A program made the translations under genes and the position numbers. A stretch of DNA of 64,000 nt from Gammaproteobacteria bacterium (GTDB taxonomy: Bacteria > Pseudomonadota > Gammaproteobacteria > Eutrophobiales > Eutrophobiaceae), in NCBI GenBank assembly GCA_965221695.1, contig OZ244905.1, positions 1,472,001-1,536,000 of the forward strand, read 5' to 3'. Of the stretch, positions 3,140 through 53,748 are shown piece after piece. Position 1 is the stretch's first letter, and each line of letters begins with the position of its first letter. Below the pieces are notes generated by a model, which was given only the letters and a program-made list of their open reading frames with translations, searched no databases and had not been told where the DNA came from.

Positions 3140-3175
3140 TTAAAGGAACCTCTGACTTAATCAGAGATTCCCTAA
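3140..3175. repeat. Short palindromic repeat (solo terminal hairpin of the 160-bp element)
   Basis: ggaacctctga-cttaa-tcagagattcc; its end overlaps the dnaQ TAG stop. Confidence 0.85.
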
Positions 3176-5193: not shown

Positions 5194-5223
5194 TTAGGAG
5201 CTTTTGAAAAAATTAGAGGCTCC
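5194..5223. repeat. Degenerate copy of the short palindromic repeat
   Basis: ggagcttttga-aaaaa-ttagaggctcc pairs only if G-U is allowed; resembles the other copies. Confidence 0.45.
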
Positions 5224-5278
5224 CGCGCGGCATAGGAATTTGCCGCCATTTTTCATCACGTAGGTGATTGAAAATGAC

Positions 5279-5307
5279 TTGACATCAAGACCGCGCCACC
5301 CTAGCAT
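5279..5307 (+). promoter_or_regulatory. Sigma70 promoter for mltD, probably leaderless
   Basis: TTGACA (5279-5284), 17 nt, TAGCAT (5302-5307); ATG at 5314. Confidence 0.7.
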
Positions 5308-10742: not shown

Positions 10743-10776
10743 TAATGGAAACTCTGATTAAGTCAGAGGTTCCTAA
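10743..10776. repeat. Short palindromic repeat in divergent promoter region
   Basis: ggaaactctga-ttaag-tcagaggttcc. Confidence 0.88.
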
Positions 10777-13612: not shown

Positions 13613-13640
13613 TAAGGAACCTCTGATTAAGTCAGAGGTT
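13613..13640. repeat. Short palindromic repeat
   Basis: taaggaacctctga-ttaag-tcagaggtt, upstream of the TonB receptor start. Confidence 0.85.
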
Positions 13641-17176: not shown

Positions 17177-18799
17177 ATGTCAGCACAACACGCTGTTACG
17201 ACAATGGATTCGGACGATCTCGATGCCATTCTGGGAGTAGTAGCGGAAGGAGAGGTAAGTCTTCGCTCCTGGCTTCGGCAGTTGCGCGAAGCAGACCAAG
17301 TCAGACAGGTTCGATGCGAGGTGGATTCCAACCTGGAGTTGGGCGCAATCACCCGCGTCAACCTGGGACTGGCAGGCCCCGCGCTGCTGTTCGAGAACAT
17401 CAAGGGTTACCAGGATACCCGCTCGACCCGTTTCGTCACCTGCGGAATGGGCAACAAACGGCAATTATGCGCGTTGCTGGATCTGCCCGGGGACACTGCG
17501 GACAAGGCAATCGTGCGCCACCTCAAGGAGACCTATAACAACCCCGTGGGGCCGGTAATCGTGCCCCACTCACCGGTGAAGCAAAACGTCCTGAAAGGCC
17601 CCTCTATTGACCTGAAACAATTCCCGGCGCCGATCTGGCAAGAAATGGACGGGGGACGTTATCTGAACACGTTCTGCGGTGTCATAACCAAAGACCGTCA
17701 CACCGGACGGGAGAATATCGGCCTATACCGCGGGCAGGTCGTTGACAGGAACCATATTGCCATGGTCATGCTGCCAACCCAAGGCGGCGGCGGACACCTC
17801 ACAGGTTACCGGCAAAACCGGGAGAAAATGCCAGTCGCCATCGCCTACGGCGCCCACGACGTGACGCCGTTCTGCGCCGGCAGTCCATTTCCGCGCCATG
17901 TGTGTGAATGGGACATGATGGGAGCCATCCTGGGCAAGCCCATCGAACTGGTCAAGTGTGAAACTGTGGACCTGGTGGCGCCCGCAGGCACTGAGGTCAT
18001 CATCGAAGGTTATCTGGACCCGAATCCTGAAAGCTACCGCATGGAAGGTCCGTTCGGCGAGTACCCCGGCTATGCCGGCGGCACGCCGTCACCCAAGCCG
18101 ACCCTGGAAGTAACCTGCATCACCCATCGGGACAACCCCATCATGCGCGGCACCTTGGAGGGCTGCCGTCCCGGTTTTCCATCTGAGGATTCAATACTAT
18201 GTTCCTATAGCTGGTCGGCCATCTTCTGGAACATGCTGGAAACCGCCGGAGTGGTGGGCGTCACCGATGTCTGGTGCCCTCATGTCTCCACCGGCACACA
18301 TATCGTGGTGCAGATACGCAAACAGTACCGCGGCCATGCTCAGCAGGTGGCTATGGCTCTGTGGGGAACCAGCGCGGCCCAGTGGTTTTTCAAGCACGTG
18401 CTGGTGGTGGAGGAAGATATCGATATCCGCGATCCTCTTGCGCTGGAATGGGCGATCGCGTTCCGGGTCAACGCCGGTATGGATCAGGTCATGCTGGTCG
18501 GCCCGACATTTGGTTCGCCGCTGGACCCTTCCGTTTCCCATGACGCGCTGGACATGCCGCGCTTTCGCACCGGCAAGTGGACCCGGGTCCTGGTCGATGC
18601 CACCCGTAATTGGGAACTGGCTGAAAACGATGATTGGAACGGTCAGAGTTTCCCGCCTGTTGGCAAACTCGAACCGGAACTGGAGGAGAAAATCCGGGCG
18701 CGCTGGGCAGAATACGGTATCGGCATCCCCTACCTGGATGAGAACCAGCGGCAACAGCTAACTCTGGCCAATCTCAGGGATGTGCTGCCGTTTGTCTGA
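17177..18799 (+). CDS. UbiD-family (prFMN-dependent) decarboxylase
   Basis: PALLFENIKGY, DGGRY, NIGLYR, EGPFGEYPGY, VVEEDIDI. Confidence 0.93.
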   Translation: MSAQHAVTTMDSDDLDAILGVVAEGEVSLRSWLRQLREADQVRQVRCEVDSNLELGAITRVNLGLAGPALLFENIKGYQDTRSTRFVTCGMGNKRQLCALLDLPGDTADKAIVRHLKETYNNPVGPVIVPHSPVKQNVLKGPSIDLKQFPAPIWQEMDGGRYLNTFCGVITKDRHTGRENIGLYRGQVVDRNHIAMVMLPTQGGGGHLTGYRQNREKMPVAIAYGAHDVTPFCAGSPFPRHVCEWDMMGAILGKPIELVKCETVDLVAPAGTEVIIEGYLDPNPESYRMEGPFGEYPGYAGGTPSPKPTLEVTCITHRDNPIMRGTLEGCRPGFPSEDSILCSYSWSAIFWNMLETAGVVGVTDVWCPHVSTGTHIVVQIRKQYRGHAQQVAMALWGTSAAQWFFKHVLVVEEDIDIRDPLALEWAIAFRVNAGMDQVMLVGPTFGSPLDPSVSHDALDMPRFRTGKWTRVLVDATRNWELAENDDWNGQSFPPVGKLEPELEEKIRARWAEYGIGIPYLDENQRQQLTLANLRDVLPFV

Positions 18800-18838
18800 C
18801 TGGTGTTTTGCTACATGGCCTATAGAGCCACCCTGAAG

Positions 18839-18999
18839 TTAAGGAAACTCTGAACAAGTCCATCCTGGACTTGTCAGAGTACGGAAAACAAAAATGCGAT
18901 TTTTGTTTTCCTCACAATATCAATGCCTTACAGTCATTGATATTGACGATACATCCTTGTATCGTAGGAACCTCTGAGACTTAATCAGAGGTTCCTTAA
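18839..18999. mobile_element. ~160-bp five-hairpin MITE-like element, copy 1
   Basis: Ends ttaaggaaactctga / tcagaggttccttaa form TIRs; five tandem hairpins; similar copy at 22948. Confidence 0.85.
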
Positions 19000-19013
19000 A
19001 ATAACTTCCGGCT

Positions 19014-20771
19014 TTACATGGCGCGCCGTAGCTGTGCCGTTTCAGCCCGGGCAATCGTATAATCGAAAGGAGCCCCGTCGCCGTGGATTGCGACTCCGTA
19101 TTGTTCTCGCGCGGCTTCGATGGAGACCAGGCCGTTGCGCACATCGCGCAGCACAGCTTCCGGATCGCGTTGCCGGGGGTCGCCGAAACCACCGCCGCCA
19201 CTGGAGACGATGGCCATGGTATCCCCCTGGTTTAGGGTATACATACGGTTGCCGTCAATCTGTTCCTTGCTGCCATCGGCGTGCTCCAGCGTCATCCGGT
19301 GCGGAACCGCGCCGCGCCCGCCGCATATGCCCAGGGGCGCAGTGAAATCACGGGCGCCACTGCCGAAATTAGCGCAAGCGATGTTATCGCCCTCAATGGT
19401 AAAGGTATAACGCACTCCAAAGCCGCCGCGCCATTGGCCCGGTCCGGCGCTGTCGGGTTCAATTTCGTACTCCACCAGTTTATACGGGGTCACCAGTTCA
19501 TGCAGTTCCGGGTCCGGCGCGCGCAATCCGCCCAGGGTAACCGGGGTGCCCACGTGATCCCAACCATCGTATCCGTTTACCGCGCCGCCGCCGCCCTTAC
19601 TCATGAAGTGGATATCCGCGAAGAAGCGGCCGGCTCCGGGGTGGATGCCCATAGTAGCTGGAGCGCACCAACGTCCCCACAGAGCTGGAACCTGTTCCGG
19701 TATGACCTGCGCCAGGGCCAGCCAGGTGGCTTCGATCATGGCCTCACCGACACACAGGGTGCAGCATGAGGTGGGCGCGGGTTCCGCCGCATTCACTATT
19801 GTTCCCGACGGCGCAATTACATGCAAAGGCCGCACCGCGCCGTCGTTGAAATCGATGTCGTTGCTGATGGCGCCGGTCGCAAACAAGGCCAGGTGGCTCA
19901 TGGCATTGGTGTTCGGCAGGGTGCTGTTGATGTAACCCGTAGCCTGCGGGTCGCTACCGGTATAATCAAAGGTGATGTTGTCGCCACTGACCTTCAGGGT
20001 AAGCCGCACCACCGGACTCTGGTCAAACACGATGCCGTCATGGTCTATGGCCCGTTCCGCGTAGTACTCGCCGTCCGGTATGGCGGCGATATCGGCGCGC
20101 ACCCGGCGCTCAGTGGCATCCAGTATTTGCGCAGTAGCGGCGGAGAGCGTCGCGACGCCGTACTGGTCCAGCAGCGTTATCAAGCGTCTTTCTCCCAGGT
20201 TGACCGCGCCGATCTGGCACTGTATGTCCCCCTCCACCAACTCCCTGGCGCGCACATTGAGCAGGATGAAATCCAACACATCTTCGCGCAGCGCGCCCTT
20301 GTCAGCCAGACGCAGGCATGGAATACGTAAAGCATCCTCCCAAGCATCCCGGGCTTGGGGGTTATAGCCAACCACGCCACCACCGCCCATGTCGGCATGA
20401 TGGCCCTTGGAAAGCAACCAGTAACACAACTGCCCGTCGCGAAATACCGGTTTCATGACGTTCAGATCCGGCGGATGGTTGTTGCCGCGGTAGGGATCGT
20501 TCAGCACGAACAGGTCGCCCTCGTGAATATCACCGGCAAAGCGTTCTGCAATCGCCTTGGCTGTGAACGGGGTGGATGCGGCAATGTCAGGGATATAAAT
20601 TGTTTGCGCTACCAGTTCCGTGTTGCGGTCGAAGATGGCAGTAGTGAAATCACGCGCCTCGGAAAATATCGGCGAACGTGAGGTACGCAACATGGTCTCA
20701 CCCATTTCTTTACAGATGGATGACAACCGTGCGCTGATGATGGCGACATCTACCGGATCAATTTGGCTCAT
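19014..20771 (-). CDS. Hydantoinase B/oxoprolinase family subunit
   Basis: RTSRSPIF, NDPYRGNNHPPD, HHADMGG, GGGGFGDP. Confidence 0.93.
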   Translation of the reverse strand: MSQIDPVDVAIISARLSSICKEMGETMLRTSRSPIFSEARDFTTAIFDRNTELVAQTIYIPDIAASTPFTAKAIAERFAGDIHEGDLFVLNDPYRGNNHPPDLNVMKPVFRDGQLCYWLLSKGHHADMGGGGVVGYNPQARDAWEDALRIPCLRLADKGALREDVLDFILLNVRARELVEGDIQCQIGAVNLGERRLITLLDQYGVATLSAATAQILDATERRVRADIAAIPDGEYYAERAIDHDGIVFDQSPVVRLTLKVSGDNITFDYTGSDPQATGYINSTLPNTNAMSHLALFATGAISNDIDFNDGAVRPLHVIAPSGTIVNAAEPAPTSCCTLCVGEAMIEATWLALAQVIPEQVPALWGRWCAPATMGIHPGAGRFFADIHFMSKGGGGAVNGYDGWDHVGTPVTLGGLRAPDPELHELVTPYKLVEYEIEPDSAGPGQWRGGFGVRYTFTIEGDNIACANFGSGARDFTAPLGICGGRGAVPHRMTLEHADGSKEQIDGNRMYTLNQGDTMAIVSSGGGGFGDPRQRDPEAVLRDVRNGLVSIEAAREQYGVAIHGDGAPFDYTIARAETAQLRRAM

Positions 20772-20784
20772 TGGTTATATGCTC

Positions 20785-20819
20785 CTAAGGAACCTCTGAT
20801 TAAATCTCAGAGGTTGCCT
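20785..20819. repeat. Short palindromic repeat between hydantoinase A and B
   Basis: ctaaggaacctctga-ttaaatc-tcagaggtt. Confidence 0.85.
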
Positions 20820-20841
20820 GATTTTATACACAGCGAAGTTC

Positions 20842-22932
20842 TTACACACGCGCCTGTGCGTTCTCTGTTGTGGATATAGACAGCAGGTAGTTCCCCCACT
20901 CATCACAGCTTAGCTGGGTATCGCCAGGCAATACGATGGTTGTGGTGGGCTGTTCGACAATAGCCGGGCCCGGCAGTTGGTTGCCTGGAGACAAAGCGAG
21001 GCCGTCGTAGACGGGCACGGTCATCATCCTGTTGTCGAACCAGGCGGGTCGTTTGCCTTTGCGGGCATGTTCTGCCGAGGGACTGCCGAGCGCGTATTTT
21101 TGTGTTTTCGGTTTCTTCGTAGCCCCGGTGGCGCTCAGACGCAGGTTGATAAGTTCTACTTCAGCATGGGTCATGCTATAGCCGAAGCGTTCATCGTGGA
21201 GACAGTGAAACCGGCTCACCAGTTGTTCCCAGGCTACACCATCCGCTTTGCCTTCGGCGAAGCCTGGCGTTTCAACCTCATTGAACTGGCCGGCATAACG
21301 CAGATCAGCGGAGAAATCCAGGTTAACATCGGCGCTGTCAACTTGTTCTTCGCTGAATGTGGCGCGCGCTATCTGGCTCATCTCTTGGATGGCATCGTTA
21401 ATGACCGCGAAATCCACCAGAGAGCCGACCATTGCGCAAGTGCGAATGTACGTGTGTTTCAAGTCGGACAGCAACATGCCGGCCGCGCAGAACACCGAGG
21501 ATTCCCGTGGCACAAGTAGCGTGTTGATGCCCAGCTCACGGGCGATGGGCGCAGCATGGATAGGGCCAGCGCCGCCGGCGACGATCATGGTGAACGCGCG
21601 CGGGTCCAGGCCGCGTTGCACAGTAACCACGGTCACGGCATTGCCCATGATCGAATTGGCCACCCGGTAGATTCCGTACGCGGCGTCTGTAACGGATAAC
21701 CCCAGCGGTCCGGCGACCCTGGTTTCAATGGCCCTGACAGCCGCGTCACGGTCGAGCTTGAGCGCCCCGCCGTGGAAGTAATCAGCATCCAGATATCCCA
21801 GCGCCAGATCCGCGTCGGTTACCGTGGGTTCTACCCCGCCGCGGCCATAACAGGCCGGCCCGGGATCGGCGCCGGCGCTGGCTGGGCCAACGCGCAATAT
21901 GCCGCCATCATCGACACTGGCTATCGACCCGCCGCCCGCTCCCACGGTGTGAATATCCAGCATGGGCGTCGCCACATGAAAACCGGCCACTTCATTTTCC
22001 GAGGTAACGGCGACACGCCCGTTTCGAACCAAGGCAACATCAAAACTGGTGCCGCCCATGTCCACACAAATAAGGTTTTTGTAATCGTGGGCGCTGCCAT
22101 AGTGAATCCCGGCGCCCGGACCGCCGGCGGGTCCAGACAGCAATGTGTTAACAGCAAAACGGCTCGTGACTCTGGGTGACATGCAACCACCGTTGGACTG
22201 CATGATGTTCAACACGCCGCGGAAGCCATTTTCAGTCAGACGCGCCTCCAGGTTATCCAGGTAACGGGCCAATGGCGGCCCCGTATAGGAATTCAAAGCT
22301 GTCGTGCTATGCCGTTCGTACACGCGTATCTGCGGCAATACTTCACTGGACAGGGAAATGTACACCTCGGGCAAAGCTTCCTGAAGGATTTCCCTTGTGC
22401 GCAACTCATGCGCCGGATTGAGAAACGACCACAAGTATGAGATTGCAACCGCCTCCACTTCGGCAGCGCGTAACACTGCCGCGGCGGCATGGACATCCTG
22501 TTCAATCAGGGGAGTGATGACCCGGCCGTTGGCGTCAATGCGTTCCGTTACCGTCAGCGTCAACGCGCGTTCAATCAGGACAGGCGGCGGCGCCAATTCC
22601 AGGTCGTAGCGCTCCCCGGTCTTCATGCCTCGGCGCATAGCCAACAGGTCGCGAAACCCGCGAGTGGTGATAAAGCCAGTGCGGGCCCCGCTTTGAGTCA
22701 GCACGGCATTGGTGGTAATCGTGGTTCCATGAACGATCGCATCCACCCGGGCGAGAAAATCCTGCAGACCGGTCCGGCTATCCTGCGCGGCCTGTTCCAG
22801 CGCGGCAAATACGCCCAGACTGGGATCAGCCGGTGTAGTGGGCGACTTGCAAATACGTGTCTTCCCTTGTTCATCACACACCAACAGGTCAGTAAAGGTG
22901 CCGCCGACATCGATGCCGATTTGATAACCCAT
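20842..22932 (-). CDS. Hydantoinase A/oxoprolinase family subunit (ATP-binding)
   Basis: DVGGTFTD, HGTTITTN, SGPAGG, DMGGTSFD, GAGGGSI. Confidence 0.94.
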   Translation of the reverse strand: MGYQIGIDVGGTFTDLLVCDEQGKTRICKSPTTPADPSLGVFAALEQAAQDSRTGLQDFLARVDAIVHGTTITTNAVLTQSGARTGFITTRGFRDLLAMRRGMKTGERYDLELAPPPVLIERALTLTVTERIDANGRVITPLIEQDVHAAAAVLRAAEVEAVAISYLWSFLNPAHELRTREILQEALPEVYISLSSEVLPQIRVYERHSTTALNSYTGPPLARYLDNLEARLTENGFRGVLNIMQSNGGCMSPRVTSRFAVNTLLSGPAGGPGAGIHYGSAHDYKNLICVDMGGTSFDVALVRNGRVAVTSENEVAGFHVATPMLDIHTVGAGGGSIASVDDGGILRVGPASAGADPGPACYGRGGVEPTVTDADLALGYLDADYFHGGALKLDRDAAVRAIETRVAGPLGLSVTDAAYGIYRVANSIMGNAVTVVTVQRGLDPRAFTMIVAGGAGPIHAAPIARELGINTLLVPRESSVFCAAGMLLSDLKHTYIRTCAMVGSLVDFAVINDAIQEMSQIARATFSEEQVDSADVNLDFSADLRYAGQFNEVETPGFAEGKADGVAWEQLVSRFHCLHDERFGYSMTHAEVELINLRLSATGATKKPKTQKYALGSPSAEHARKGKRPAWFDNRMMTVPVYDGLALSPGNQLPGPAIVEQPTTTIVLPGDTQLSCDEWGNYLLSISTTENAQARV

Positions 22933-22947
22933 ATTGTTCAGTAATGT

Positions 22948-23106
22948 TTAATGAAGCTCTGAACAAGTTCATCCTGGACTTGTCAGAGCACGCAAAACAA
23001 AAATGCGATTTTTGTTTTGCTGTCAAAATCAATGACGTATCGTCACTGATTTTGGCGATACATCCCTGTATCGCAGGAAACTCTGACTTAATCAGAGTTT
23101 CCTTAA
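22948..23106. mobile_element. ~160-bp five-hairpin MITE-like element, copy 2
   Basis: Same architecture and orientation as copy 1, TTAA at both ends. Confidence 0.85.
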
Positions 23107-23222
23107 GTGAGTCAGAAGCTCCTACGGTACAGAGATGTATCGCCCTATGTCAACCGGCGCCTGCCCCGCGACAAAACCTGTGTTAAACTTTTCAACAGAT
23201 CCGCACCTGACACGCCAGCGAT

Positions 23223-23624
23223 ATGACAGAACAACTGTTACCCTCCGACTTCGCCGACCTGGAGCTATTCGCCGATTGGGCGTTGGCCAATGAAGCCGAC
23301 CGGCTGCAAAAACGCCTTGCCTCTTCGATGGAAGACATCCAGGCGTTCCATGCCGCTATGCTGGCTCGTGTAGAGGACGCGCTGGAATACCTGAACGGCT
23401 TTCCCCTGGACCAGTTGCCGCAACCTGAACAACGTCTCCTGAACCTGACCCTGTCTCTTGCCGAGGTCTGGGTTGCCGTGGAATTGTACAAACAACCGGA
23501 CCATCCTTTTGGTCTGGACATGAGGCGCTTCGTTCCGGGCGAGGCGACTCTGTTCCTCCCGTCTAACCGGGCGCCCGACCCGCAGCAGGAACTTGACAGA
23601 GCAGGCCATGGAACTGTCCCATAA
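23223..23624 (+). CDS. Small helical hypothetical protein preceding the Rieske oxygenase
   Basis: Coding-like ORF (LP.DFADLE..ADWAL, RLASSMEDIQAF) overlapping the Rieske start. Confidence 0.75.
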   Translation: MTEQLLPSDFADLELFADWALANEADRLQKRLASSMEDIQAFHAAMLARVEDALEYLNGFPLDQLPQPEQRLLNLTLSLAEVWVAVELYKQPDHPFGLDMRRFVPGEATLFLPSNRAPDPQQELDRAGHGTVP

Positions 23625-26947: not shown

Positions 26948-27271
26948 ATGTCGCTAATCAATCAGCACAAATGGATAACATGGCTCGGGATAGTTCTGTT
27001 CCTGGCCGGACAAACGCTCTCCATTGCGCATGCGAGTGAATTCGGCCCGGGTCCCCATGAGCACAATGGCGTTGCTTGTTTCGCGATCCTGAACGATGAG
27101 CAGGACGGGATCGATGCGGCTGCGAATGCCGCTGCGCCAACGTTCATCGCCCTGGTCTCGACCACAGTTCAACCAACGAAACAGGCGCTGCCAAAGCGCT
27201 TGCTTTCGCTTCGACCCCCGCCTACAGGTCCTCCTTCAATCCTGTCCCATTTGAGTTACTTGCACCGTTAA
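26948..27271 (+). CDS. DUF2946-like leader protein (TM helix, His/Cys patch, Pro-rich C-terminus)
   Basis: Hydrophobic N-terminus, AH...HEHNGVAC, RPPPTGPP; sits upstream of a TonB receptor. Confidence 0.65.
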   Translation: MSLINQHKWITWLGIVLFLAGQTLSIAHASEFGPGPHEHNGVACFAILNDEQDGIDAAANAAAPTFIALVSTTVQPTKQALPKRLLSLRPPPTGPPSILSHLSYLHR

Positions 27272-27394
27272 GGGTAACTGCGCCTCTGTGCGCTATTGCC
27301 TTTGCGGCGTTTGAAACACTTACGAACTTACTTGCACCGTTAAGGGCATCCGCATATCTGTGCGCTGCTGCCTTTGCGGTATTCGAAACAGTTA
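27256..27394 (+). repeat. Two-copy direct repeat, 72-bp period
   Basis: ttacttgcaccgttaaggg...tctgtgcgct..tgcctttgcgg..gaaaca.tta at 27256 and 27328; 55/67 identical by hand alignment. Confidence 0.9.
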
Positions 27395-53520: not shown

Positions 53521-53700
53521 GTGTCGCCCAGGGGCGACCAGTTGTTTCACTGGATTCCCGCTTTCACGGGAATGGGAGGGGGGCACTTCCGCGAACACTG
53601 CCACAGCACCACTCCCGCGGAAGCGGGAGTCCAATGTAATACTGTGTCGCCCGCAGGGCGACCCGTTGTTTCACTGGATTCCCGCTTTCGCGGGAATGGG
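53521..53700. repeat. REP/BIME-like cluster of palindromic repeats
   Basis: Two direct ~56-bp units containing tggattcccgctttc.cgggaat and an inverted middle copy at 53611-53633. Confidence 0.85.
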
Positions 53701-53748
53701 ATAGGGGCGCTAGCGGGGGAATAGGATGGAGTGCGTGCCCGCTTGTTG

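Follow-up and report, generated by a model that had tools for sequence, protein, structure and literature searches.

We analysed a 64,000-nt stretch of a gammaproteobacterial genome (contig OZ244905.1, positions 1,472,001 to 1,536,000; hereafter the window), in which two copies of a repeat of about 160 bp, lying in the same orientation, bracket the B and A genes of a hydantoinase/oxoprolinase. [quoted passage not shown] It very probably derives from, and was moved in trans by, an insertion sequence (IS) of the IS5 group. Coordinates are window positions unless a contig (C1) or locus (L) label is given, and G000 denotes the source genome. Outside the two copies there is a gene of the UbiD family and one for a Rieske oxygenase. 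The second copy lies upstream of the A gene (open reading frame (ORF) 20842-22932, minus strand), 16 nt from its first ATG. The gap of 70 nt between the two hydantoinase genes contains a 29-bp mini-element (20789-20817, flanks CTAA/CTGA) that consists only of terminal inverted repeats (TIRs). The gene order of the region is kept in two congeners that lack these copies.

A first-pass annotation had placed five-hairpin copies at 18839-18999 (copy A) and 22948-23106 (copy B). Both the placement and the folds were borne out. As RNA, copy A reaches -76.6 kcal/mol (z = -12.25) and copy B -75.5 kcal/mol (z = -11.96), each with five consecutive hairpins, and for neither copy was any of 200 dinucleotide shuffles equally stable. 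As single-stranded DNA, copy A adopts the five-hairpin fold on both strands (z = -14.8 and -15.0). In the folds of copy A the hairpins occupy 18847-18880 (H1), 18883-18911 (H2), 18915-18945 (H3), 18946-18965 (H4) and 18967-18995 (H5). The corresponding hairpins of copy B lie at 22956-22989, 22992-23020, 23024-23054, 23055-23074 and 23075-23102. The two copies are 86% identical over 139 nt of ungapped sequence, with a mean column identity of 89% when aligned. Copy A is 100% identical to another copy in the genome (G000:C1:1981512-1981672).

Target duplications and an IS5-type partner

A BLASTN search of the source genome (3.54 Mb in a single contig, 55% G+C) with both window copies returned 627 pieces that merged into 289 loci, 87 of them full length. 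The 87 full copies were set in one register together with 12 nt of flank. Nearly all of them carry the terminal GGAAnCTCTGA at both ends. The outer 4-mers differ between copies, yet repeat directly on either side (TTAG...TTAG, CTAA...CTAA, TAAA...TAAA, TGAG...TGAG). Since these flanking 4-mers are variable but directly repeated, the TTAA is a 4-bp target-site duplication. Identical flanking 4-mers were found at 64 of the 87 copies (TTAA 33, TTAG 7, CTAA 7, TAAA 5, CTAG 2, CTTA 2, TAAG 2 and six singletons), and 49 of these 64 fit YTAR. PMC5009759 gives a 4-bp duplication at 5'-YTAR-3' as the signature of IS5.

The element proper thus lies inside the TTAA, which the first-pass annotation had taken for the element ends; the TIRs that it had reported do stand. 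In copy A the left TTAA (18839-18842), repeated by the identical 4-mer at 18996-18999, is followed by an element of 153 bp (18843-18995, plus strand), 2 bp longer than the 151-bp consensus. In copy B the duplications at 22948-22951 and 23103-23106 enclose 151 bp (22952-23102, plus strand), which belong to a second subfamily. The element runs from GGAAnCTCTGA to TCAGAGnTTCC with TIRs of 11-19 nt. In H1 the left TIR pairs with an inverted repetition of its own inner part, and H5 is a complete TIR pair.

The ends are those of the IS5 group. The left TIR of copy A (GGAAACTCTGAACAAGTCC, 18843-18861, plus strand) agrees with the right end of IS5A from Escherichia coli K-12 at 15 of 19 positions, with the stretch GAACAAGTCC in common; like IS5 the element starts with GGAA and duplicates 4 bp at YTAR. 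A closer match exists within the genus. Congener G001, which also carries the MITE, contains an IS of 1149-1151 bp (L183/L186) with an open frame of 319 aa and TTAA on both flanks. Its ends, GGAAGCTCTGATTAAGCCC and GGAAACTCTGATCAAGTCT, are identical to the two MITE ends at 16 and 17 of 19 positions, respectively, and one end at L183 matches the left TIR of copy A at 17 of 19. A transposase frame with similar TIRs, for which the first-pass annotation had advised to look, is present in a congener. The sister frame of this IS in congener G022 (L050) contains the DUF772 and DDE_Tnp_1 domains and shares 47% identity with InsH1, the transposase of E. coli IS5 (E = 1e-88); domains and identity were both measured on this sister frame. 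The G022 IS had been picked out by scanning 30 loci of the genus with a PF01609 (DDE_Tnp_1) match for MITE-like ends. PF01609 matches occur in 16 of 23 genus genomes, and a protein search with the G022 frame found relatives in 4 of the 23. While the IS encodes a transposase, the MITE is non-coding: about 19 nt at each end are common to both, and the interior of the MITE consists of five hairpins unrelated to the IS. The MITE therefore shares only its ends with its parent.

No transposase had been noted in the window. This holds for the whole source genome, in which PF01609 has no match, apart from a relic. A tblastn search with the G001 transposase found a stretch of 33 aa with 76% identity at C1:1594560-1594655, outside the window, plus a weaker stretch of 43 aa; the former is a relic, about 100 nt long, of the 5' end of the IS5-type transposase gene and the only trace of the partner IS in this genome. 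The relic indicates that the partner was once resident in this genome. All seven IS-sized pairs of TIRs with equal flanks in the source genome proved to be ordinary genes between two mini-elements and held no transposase. An insertion of 1146 bp in G000 relative to L112 was rejected as an IS, being a membrane-protein gene.

Shortened and enlarged forms accompany the full copies. The source genome contains 226 H5-like hairpins of 27-31 bp that consist of TIRs only; about 41 are the H5 of long copies, and 52 are free-standing with perfect 4-bp duplications. Deletion derivatives of 60-91 bp were found as well as a 223-bp form with an additional hairpin module of 72 bp. This variant is located at L193:86-308 (G000:C1:1137685-1137907) and at three more sites, the module being inserted between H3 and H4; on the minus strand, one hairpin of the module has the loop CUGGA. 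In one case a relative carries a 66-bp form made of H1 and H5 at the site orthologous to a full copy of the source genome, so shortening can happen in situ. Congeners carry the element and G000 lacks it at L008/L034, L013 and L030, and the reverse is found at L102, the flanks sharing no more than about 80% identity. At five sites both G000 and near relatives have a copy. For the window copies, the closest genome (G008) had no match to either left flank, and the genes around the copies are syntenic in G007 and G001, where the intergenic DNA could not be aligned. Short-read contigs from three public DNA runs, followed over 18400-23500, break at both copies (18742-19083 and 22846-23187), where the summed k-mer depth is about 100-400 times that of the flanks. 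In this interval they contain no joint that removes exactly one element.

Beyond the source genome, 18 of 22 further congeneric species carry the element; so do one of the two other genera of the same taxonomic family and 3 of 16 further families sampled from the class. Copies there go down to 74-83% identity. A pattern scan of a named genome collection found at least 96 stretches with the element, and among the matches listed all records are genomes of uncultured Gammaproteobacteria, Chromatiales or Rhodanobacteraceae. No match to the element turned up in a plasmid collection searched by distant blastn. A literature search by kind of element found no published description of the family. In agreement with the earlier proposal of an undescribed structured MITE, the TIRs, the 4-bp duplication, the 87 full copies and the IS5-group relative define a new family of a known kind, the IS5-derived MITEs. 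The comparison with Rfam, also proposed in the first pass, gave no identity either: no family reached its gathering threshold (best score on the window copies 34 bits against 80, in a further search 22.5 against 42). The gyrA RNA motif (RF01740, threshold 45 bits) was discarded as a candidate. It scored 40.5 bits (E = 3.7e-9, full length of the motif) for one copy with flank only, where minus-strand H2 and H1 plus flank at L196:180-267 (G000:C1:1336179-1336266) have a GUGAG leader and a CCAnGAUGG loop in common with it; three other loci and window copy A gave no match.

Correia elements of Neisseria have an IHF site, TA duplications and TIRs of 26 bp. Like ERIC of enterobacteria, they are stably folding intergenic MITEs of 100-160 bp that can affect neighbouring transcripts. 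In these two families the fold arises mainly from pairing of two long TIRs and the duplication is TA, in contrast to the five local hairpins, the 4-bp duplication and the identifiable IS5-type parent found here. We rejected an assignment to Correia on the 4-bp duplication, the TIRs of 11-19 nt and the uncultured gammaproteobacterial hosts. A feature comparable to the Correia IHF site is WATCAANNNNTTR, which we take to be the IHF consensus: it occurs on the plus strand of 59 of the 87 copies, in 53 of them at one position in H3 (e.g. 18918-18930), and has only 189 matches genome-wide. The Tourist/PIF-Harbinger MITEs of plants belong to eukaryotic relatives of IS5 and are strongly structured, and they insert at TAA/TTA-type sites; they differ in a 3-bp duplication and in their eukaryotic hosts, and common descent is not evident beyond the transposase superfamily. 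A TTAA transposon of the piggyBac type was rejected, as 31 of the 64 perfect duplications are not TTAA and the parent transposase is of IS5 type.

MITEPgRS/BrickBuilt of Porphyromonas gingivalis and ATR of Neisseria are type II MITEs that have nothing but their TIRs in common with IS5-family elements (PMC4596501). They differ from the present family in GAGACC...-type TIRs, in variable or absent target duplications, in the lack of a five-hairpin architecture and in hosts of other phyla or orders. The bcr1 element of the Bacillus cereus group is about 155 bp long, has short terminal direct repeats and keeps its fold by compensatory changes (PMC3184786). It differs in 5-bp duplications, the lack of IS5-type ends, a Firmicute host and transcription, which has been shown for bcr1. 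Chunjie was rejected on its 9-bp direct repeats and 21-bp TIRs (PMC3184786). A review of general scope is PMC10969869.

Covariation of the stems

All five compensatory pairs that had been reported, one in each stem, are seen in the alignment of copies A and B, and stem 3 contains a second compensated pair in addition to the one listed. The same holds between the two subfamily consensuses of the source genome. They differ at 17 positions, of which 12 form six compensated pairs and four are unpaired; the remaining one is a change with an unpaired partner at the tip of stem 3.

We extended the comparison to 91 copies, i.e. the two window copies and 89 distinct full-length copies from other loci. 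They were drawn from 106 candidates by leaving out one duplicate of copy A and 16 sequences with larger insertions or deletions. Folded singly, 84 of the 91 have exactly five hairpins. RNAalifold on a MAFFT alignment lost stem 3 and parts of others, since the diverged arms of stem 3 had been misaligned. Pairs were counted on the structure projected from copy A, a procedure that somewhat favours this structure. Standard pairs were found in 91.7% of 5363 cells compared to 82.5 ± 0.2% in column shuffles, none of 500 of which reached the observed value. Changes on both sides occurred in 40 of 61 pairs (23 ± 2 in shuffles) and in 520 cells (166 in shuffles). When the partners were slid by 1-3 columns only 34-50% remained paired.

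Each helix contains 6-10 covarying pairs. At several positions three or four Watson-Crick types coexist (e.g. C-G 53, A-U 14, G-C 11, U-A 5). Our tally of Watson-Crick pair types that depart from the commonest one on both sides comes to at least 58, a lower limit for how many compensated switches took place separately. Stems 3 and 4 of distant genomes are wholly different in sequence and still perfect hairpins. The claim of the first pass that the structure is maintained thus extends from two copies to many genomes, and the structural covariation is exceptionally clear.

Private mutations of the resident copies behave differently from these lineage differences. Singleton substitutions amount to 0.70 per stem site and 0.79 per unpaired site, and 147 of 159 rare stem variants are unpaired. 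Resident copies therefore decay approximately neutrally while the differences between lineages are compensated, from which we infer that the fold matters when a copy proliferates. By region, the density of singletons per site is lower in H3 (0.55) and H4 (0.40) than in the others (0.82-0.91).

Non-canonical pairs had been described as favouring neither strand, which is not quite what the larger sets give. Over all cells, A:C mismatches outnumber G:T by 89 to 51 in the source genome and by 140 to 71 in the diverse set. When only rare variants are counted, the ratio is about 1.4 to 1 (53 to 37, p = 0.11, and 43 to 29, p = 0.12) and not significant in either set alone. The strand asymmetry of wobble pairs is suggestive only.

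GGA loops and rival accounts of the fold

In the reading that we propose, the element inserts at YTAR sites, mostly TTAA, and duplicates 4 bp, and the transposase of the congener would be able to mobilise it in trans. The matching 1.15-kb IS has its 319-aa frame open in one congener; others have it as a pseudogene, and the source genome retains no more than a relic. Because of this last state the approximately 87 full and 180 shortened copies of the source genome are now probably stranded. Each end forms a hairpin of the TIR and its inverted copy (H1, H5), and the inner stems H2-H4 covary freely. Spreading lineages always carry intact stems, and resident copies gain private stem mutations as fast as elsewhere. 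The fold would then matter at proliferation, as transposition substrate or for the immediate survival of that substrate, rather than as a service at each locus. Hairpins are not known to be required by the DDE/IS5-type transposition mechanism.

Several points weigh against this reading. The inner 110 bp of the MITE are unrelated to the IS, such that the derivation is drawn from the ends. G022, the species of the genus with most IS fragments, has no MITE copy, and G000 and G008, which are richest in near-identical copies, have no PF01609 transposase. Given this poor co-occurrence of partner and MITE, the recent spread in the source genome needs a transposase that has since been lost. A base-precise empty site was not found: element-free orthologous sites occur only in species of about 80% identity with diverged intergenic DNA. 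The sequences in the covariation test are related, and the shuffle control hence overstates its significance. Finally, the low singleton density in H3 and H4 softens the inference that the fold matters only at proliferation.

The loops of the hairpins lead to a further account. On the minus strand the tip of H4 reads RTACARGGATGT in 78 of the 87 copies, which matches the consensus of CsrA ligands from systematic evolution of ligands by exponential enrichment (SELEX) at 12 of 12 positions. According to PMC4347634 this consensus is RUACARGGAUGU with the GGA within a hairpin loop. In copy A the tip (ATACAAGGATGT, 18951-18962, minus strand) likewise matches at 12 of 12 positions; in the H4 fold the stem ends at its top in ACA and UGU, and the GGA lies in a 4-nt loop. 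The H4 hairpin therefore combines the sequence and the loop by which CsrA-binding RNAs are recognised, a loop GGA in an A(N)GGA / RUACARGGAUGU context. The source genome contains 103 such 12-mers compared to 1.3 expected from its composition, and it encodes CsrA. A second loop is provided by H1, a GGA triloop on the minus strand; the sequence GTCCnGGAnGGAC is found in 72 of the 87 copies. In copy A this triloop lies at 18863-18865 and is closed by a 9-bp stem in the fold. Two loop GGAs are present on the minus strand of 79 of the 87 copies. The plus strand has no GGA in a hairpin loop and one unpaired GGA in 66 of 87 copies, which we read as the terminal GGAA of the TIR. Of the 91 diverse copies, 81 have CAnGGAnG and 82 have CCnGGAnGG, with covariation in the lower stems.

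From these motifs, CsrA binding by the minus-strand element appears possible. We tentatively consider that the MITE may also be a mobile CsrA-binding module, in which transcribed minus-strand H4 and H1 would bind CsrA, neighbouring genes would be regulated or CsrA titrated, and fold and loops would be kept for this purpose. The match of H4, its genomic excess and the conservation of both loops on one strand speak for such a module. In addition, the 223-bp variant adds another GGA loop, H4 is the hairpin poorest in private mutations, and the excess of A:C over G:T in the stems corresponds to G:U wobble pairs on the minus strand. On the other side, the minus strand is sense to the neighbouring gene in 73 of 174 gene-facing cases, i.e. 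without enrichment, a scan of the element found no promoter-like site above shuffled background, and the wobble asymmetry among rare variants falls short of significance. The H1 loop adjoins the TIR and could be constrained by the transposase, and a DNA transposon has no obvious gain from binding CsrA.

The Csr/Rsm sponge RNAs (CsrB, RsmY/Z/V) resemble the element in having several hairpins with a loop GGA, and the H4 tip is the SELEX consensus. They contain 5-20 sites compared to two per MITE copy, and the MITE is dispersed mobile DNA without a known promoter; its scores with the Rfam models of Csr/Rsm RNAs are only 12-14 bits, far below thresholds of 57-100. That the element is a transposon with ready-made high-affinity CsrA-binding hairpins, which would rewire the Csr regulon or act as a dispersed sponge and whose fold would be kept for loop display, seems rather doubtful to us. 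No paper on a mobile element carrying CsrA sites was found.

Compensated stems could also arise free of any selection on the fold, if mismatches in single-stranded DNA hairpins were corrected from the opposite arm by quasi-palindrome or template-switch events during replication or transposition. Many of the pair changes are indeed transversion flips without a wobble intermediate (G-C to C-G, 43/33, at one pair; A-T to T-A, 50/38, 45/32 and 48/40, at three others), there are few one-sided G-U states, and both DNA strands fold equally well. We nevertheless regard this origin as unlikely. Uncompensated stem mismatches of resident copies occur at the same per-site rate as loop changes, and the 147 unpaired variants among 159 indicate that resident loci escape correction, which would have to be limited to transposition. 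In that restricted form hairpin-templated repair would give the same pattern as selection at the level of proliferation. Correction from arm to arm does not explain why the H1 and H4 loops keep their sequence from genus to genus.

A service at each locus, i.e. a host-level RNA role as transcript stabiliser, RNase site or terminator, has precedents in bcr1, ERIC and Correia (PMC3184786, PMC10969869). On a crude gene map based on ORFs, all 87 full copies are intergenic, the duplicated TAA/TAG serves as stop codon in 10 of 78 facing gene ends, and in tandem gene pairs a weak orientation bias is found (28 to 14, p = 0.04). The scan of the element for terminator-like and promoter-like sites found none above shuffled expectation, though, and private mutations are not depleted in the stems overall, so that such a role appears improbable. 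REP/REPIN palindromes mobilised by a RAYT tyrosine transposase, or a multi-copy gene for a structured non-coding RNA with no transposon involved, are next to excluded despite the REP-like tandem hairpins and high copy number, given the variable direct 4-bp duplications at 64 of 87 copies, the IS5-type TIRs, the absence of a Y1_Tnp (PF01797) match from the source genome and of an Rfam family at threshold.

As a MITE the element is ordinary; what sets it apart are the five hairpins kept by paired changes and the two loops resembling CsrA sites. Dozens of independent compensated switches set against freely decaying resident copies provide a clean natural experiment, which makes it testable whether secondary structure helps a cut-and-paste element to spread. 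If the CsrA consensus of H4 were functional, the element would, on transposing, take along sites for a global post-transcriptional regulator, and each insertion would add a consensus CsrA site and a second GGA triloop to an intergenic region. In annotation, many intergenic repeats, contig breaks and stop codons provided by the duplicated TAA/TAG can be put down to this family in a group of uncultured Gammaproteobacteria from soil and groundwater.

Further repeats in the window and genome

Besides the two full copies and the mini-element between the hydantoinase genes, the window contains several remnants of the family. An inverted fragment abuts copy B (23106-23146, minus strand) and covers profile positions 105-145, i.e. 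H4 and part of H5 (nhmmer E = 2.5e-6). A partial, diverged copy at 5195-5288 on the minus strand covers profile positions 65-157 (nhmmer E = 2.6e-6). Two 27-bp mini-elements that consist only of TIRs are located at 3145-3171 and 10747-10773, and a weak TIR hairpin of this type lies at 13613-13640 (nhmmer E = 5.4e-5).

A second, unrelated MITE-like family was encountered at G000:C1:893841-894136 and L163:2439-2704. No copy of it was found in the window. Its members are about 265-295 bp long with TIRs of about 31 nt and a G+C-rich interior. One site is occupied only in G000 and a nearby site only in a close relative, so the family has recently been mobile. Several five-hairpin copies sit in a TTAA inside the TIR of this second family, as seen from their shared flanks.

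Two separate local repeats also occur in the window: a 67-nt unit at 72-nt spacing (27256-27394), and a 56-nt unit at 124-nt spacing (53532-53711) that contains the palindrome GGATTCCCGC...GCGGGAATGGGA.

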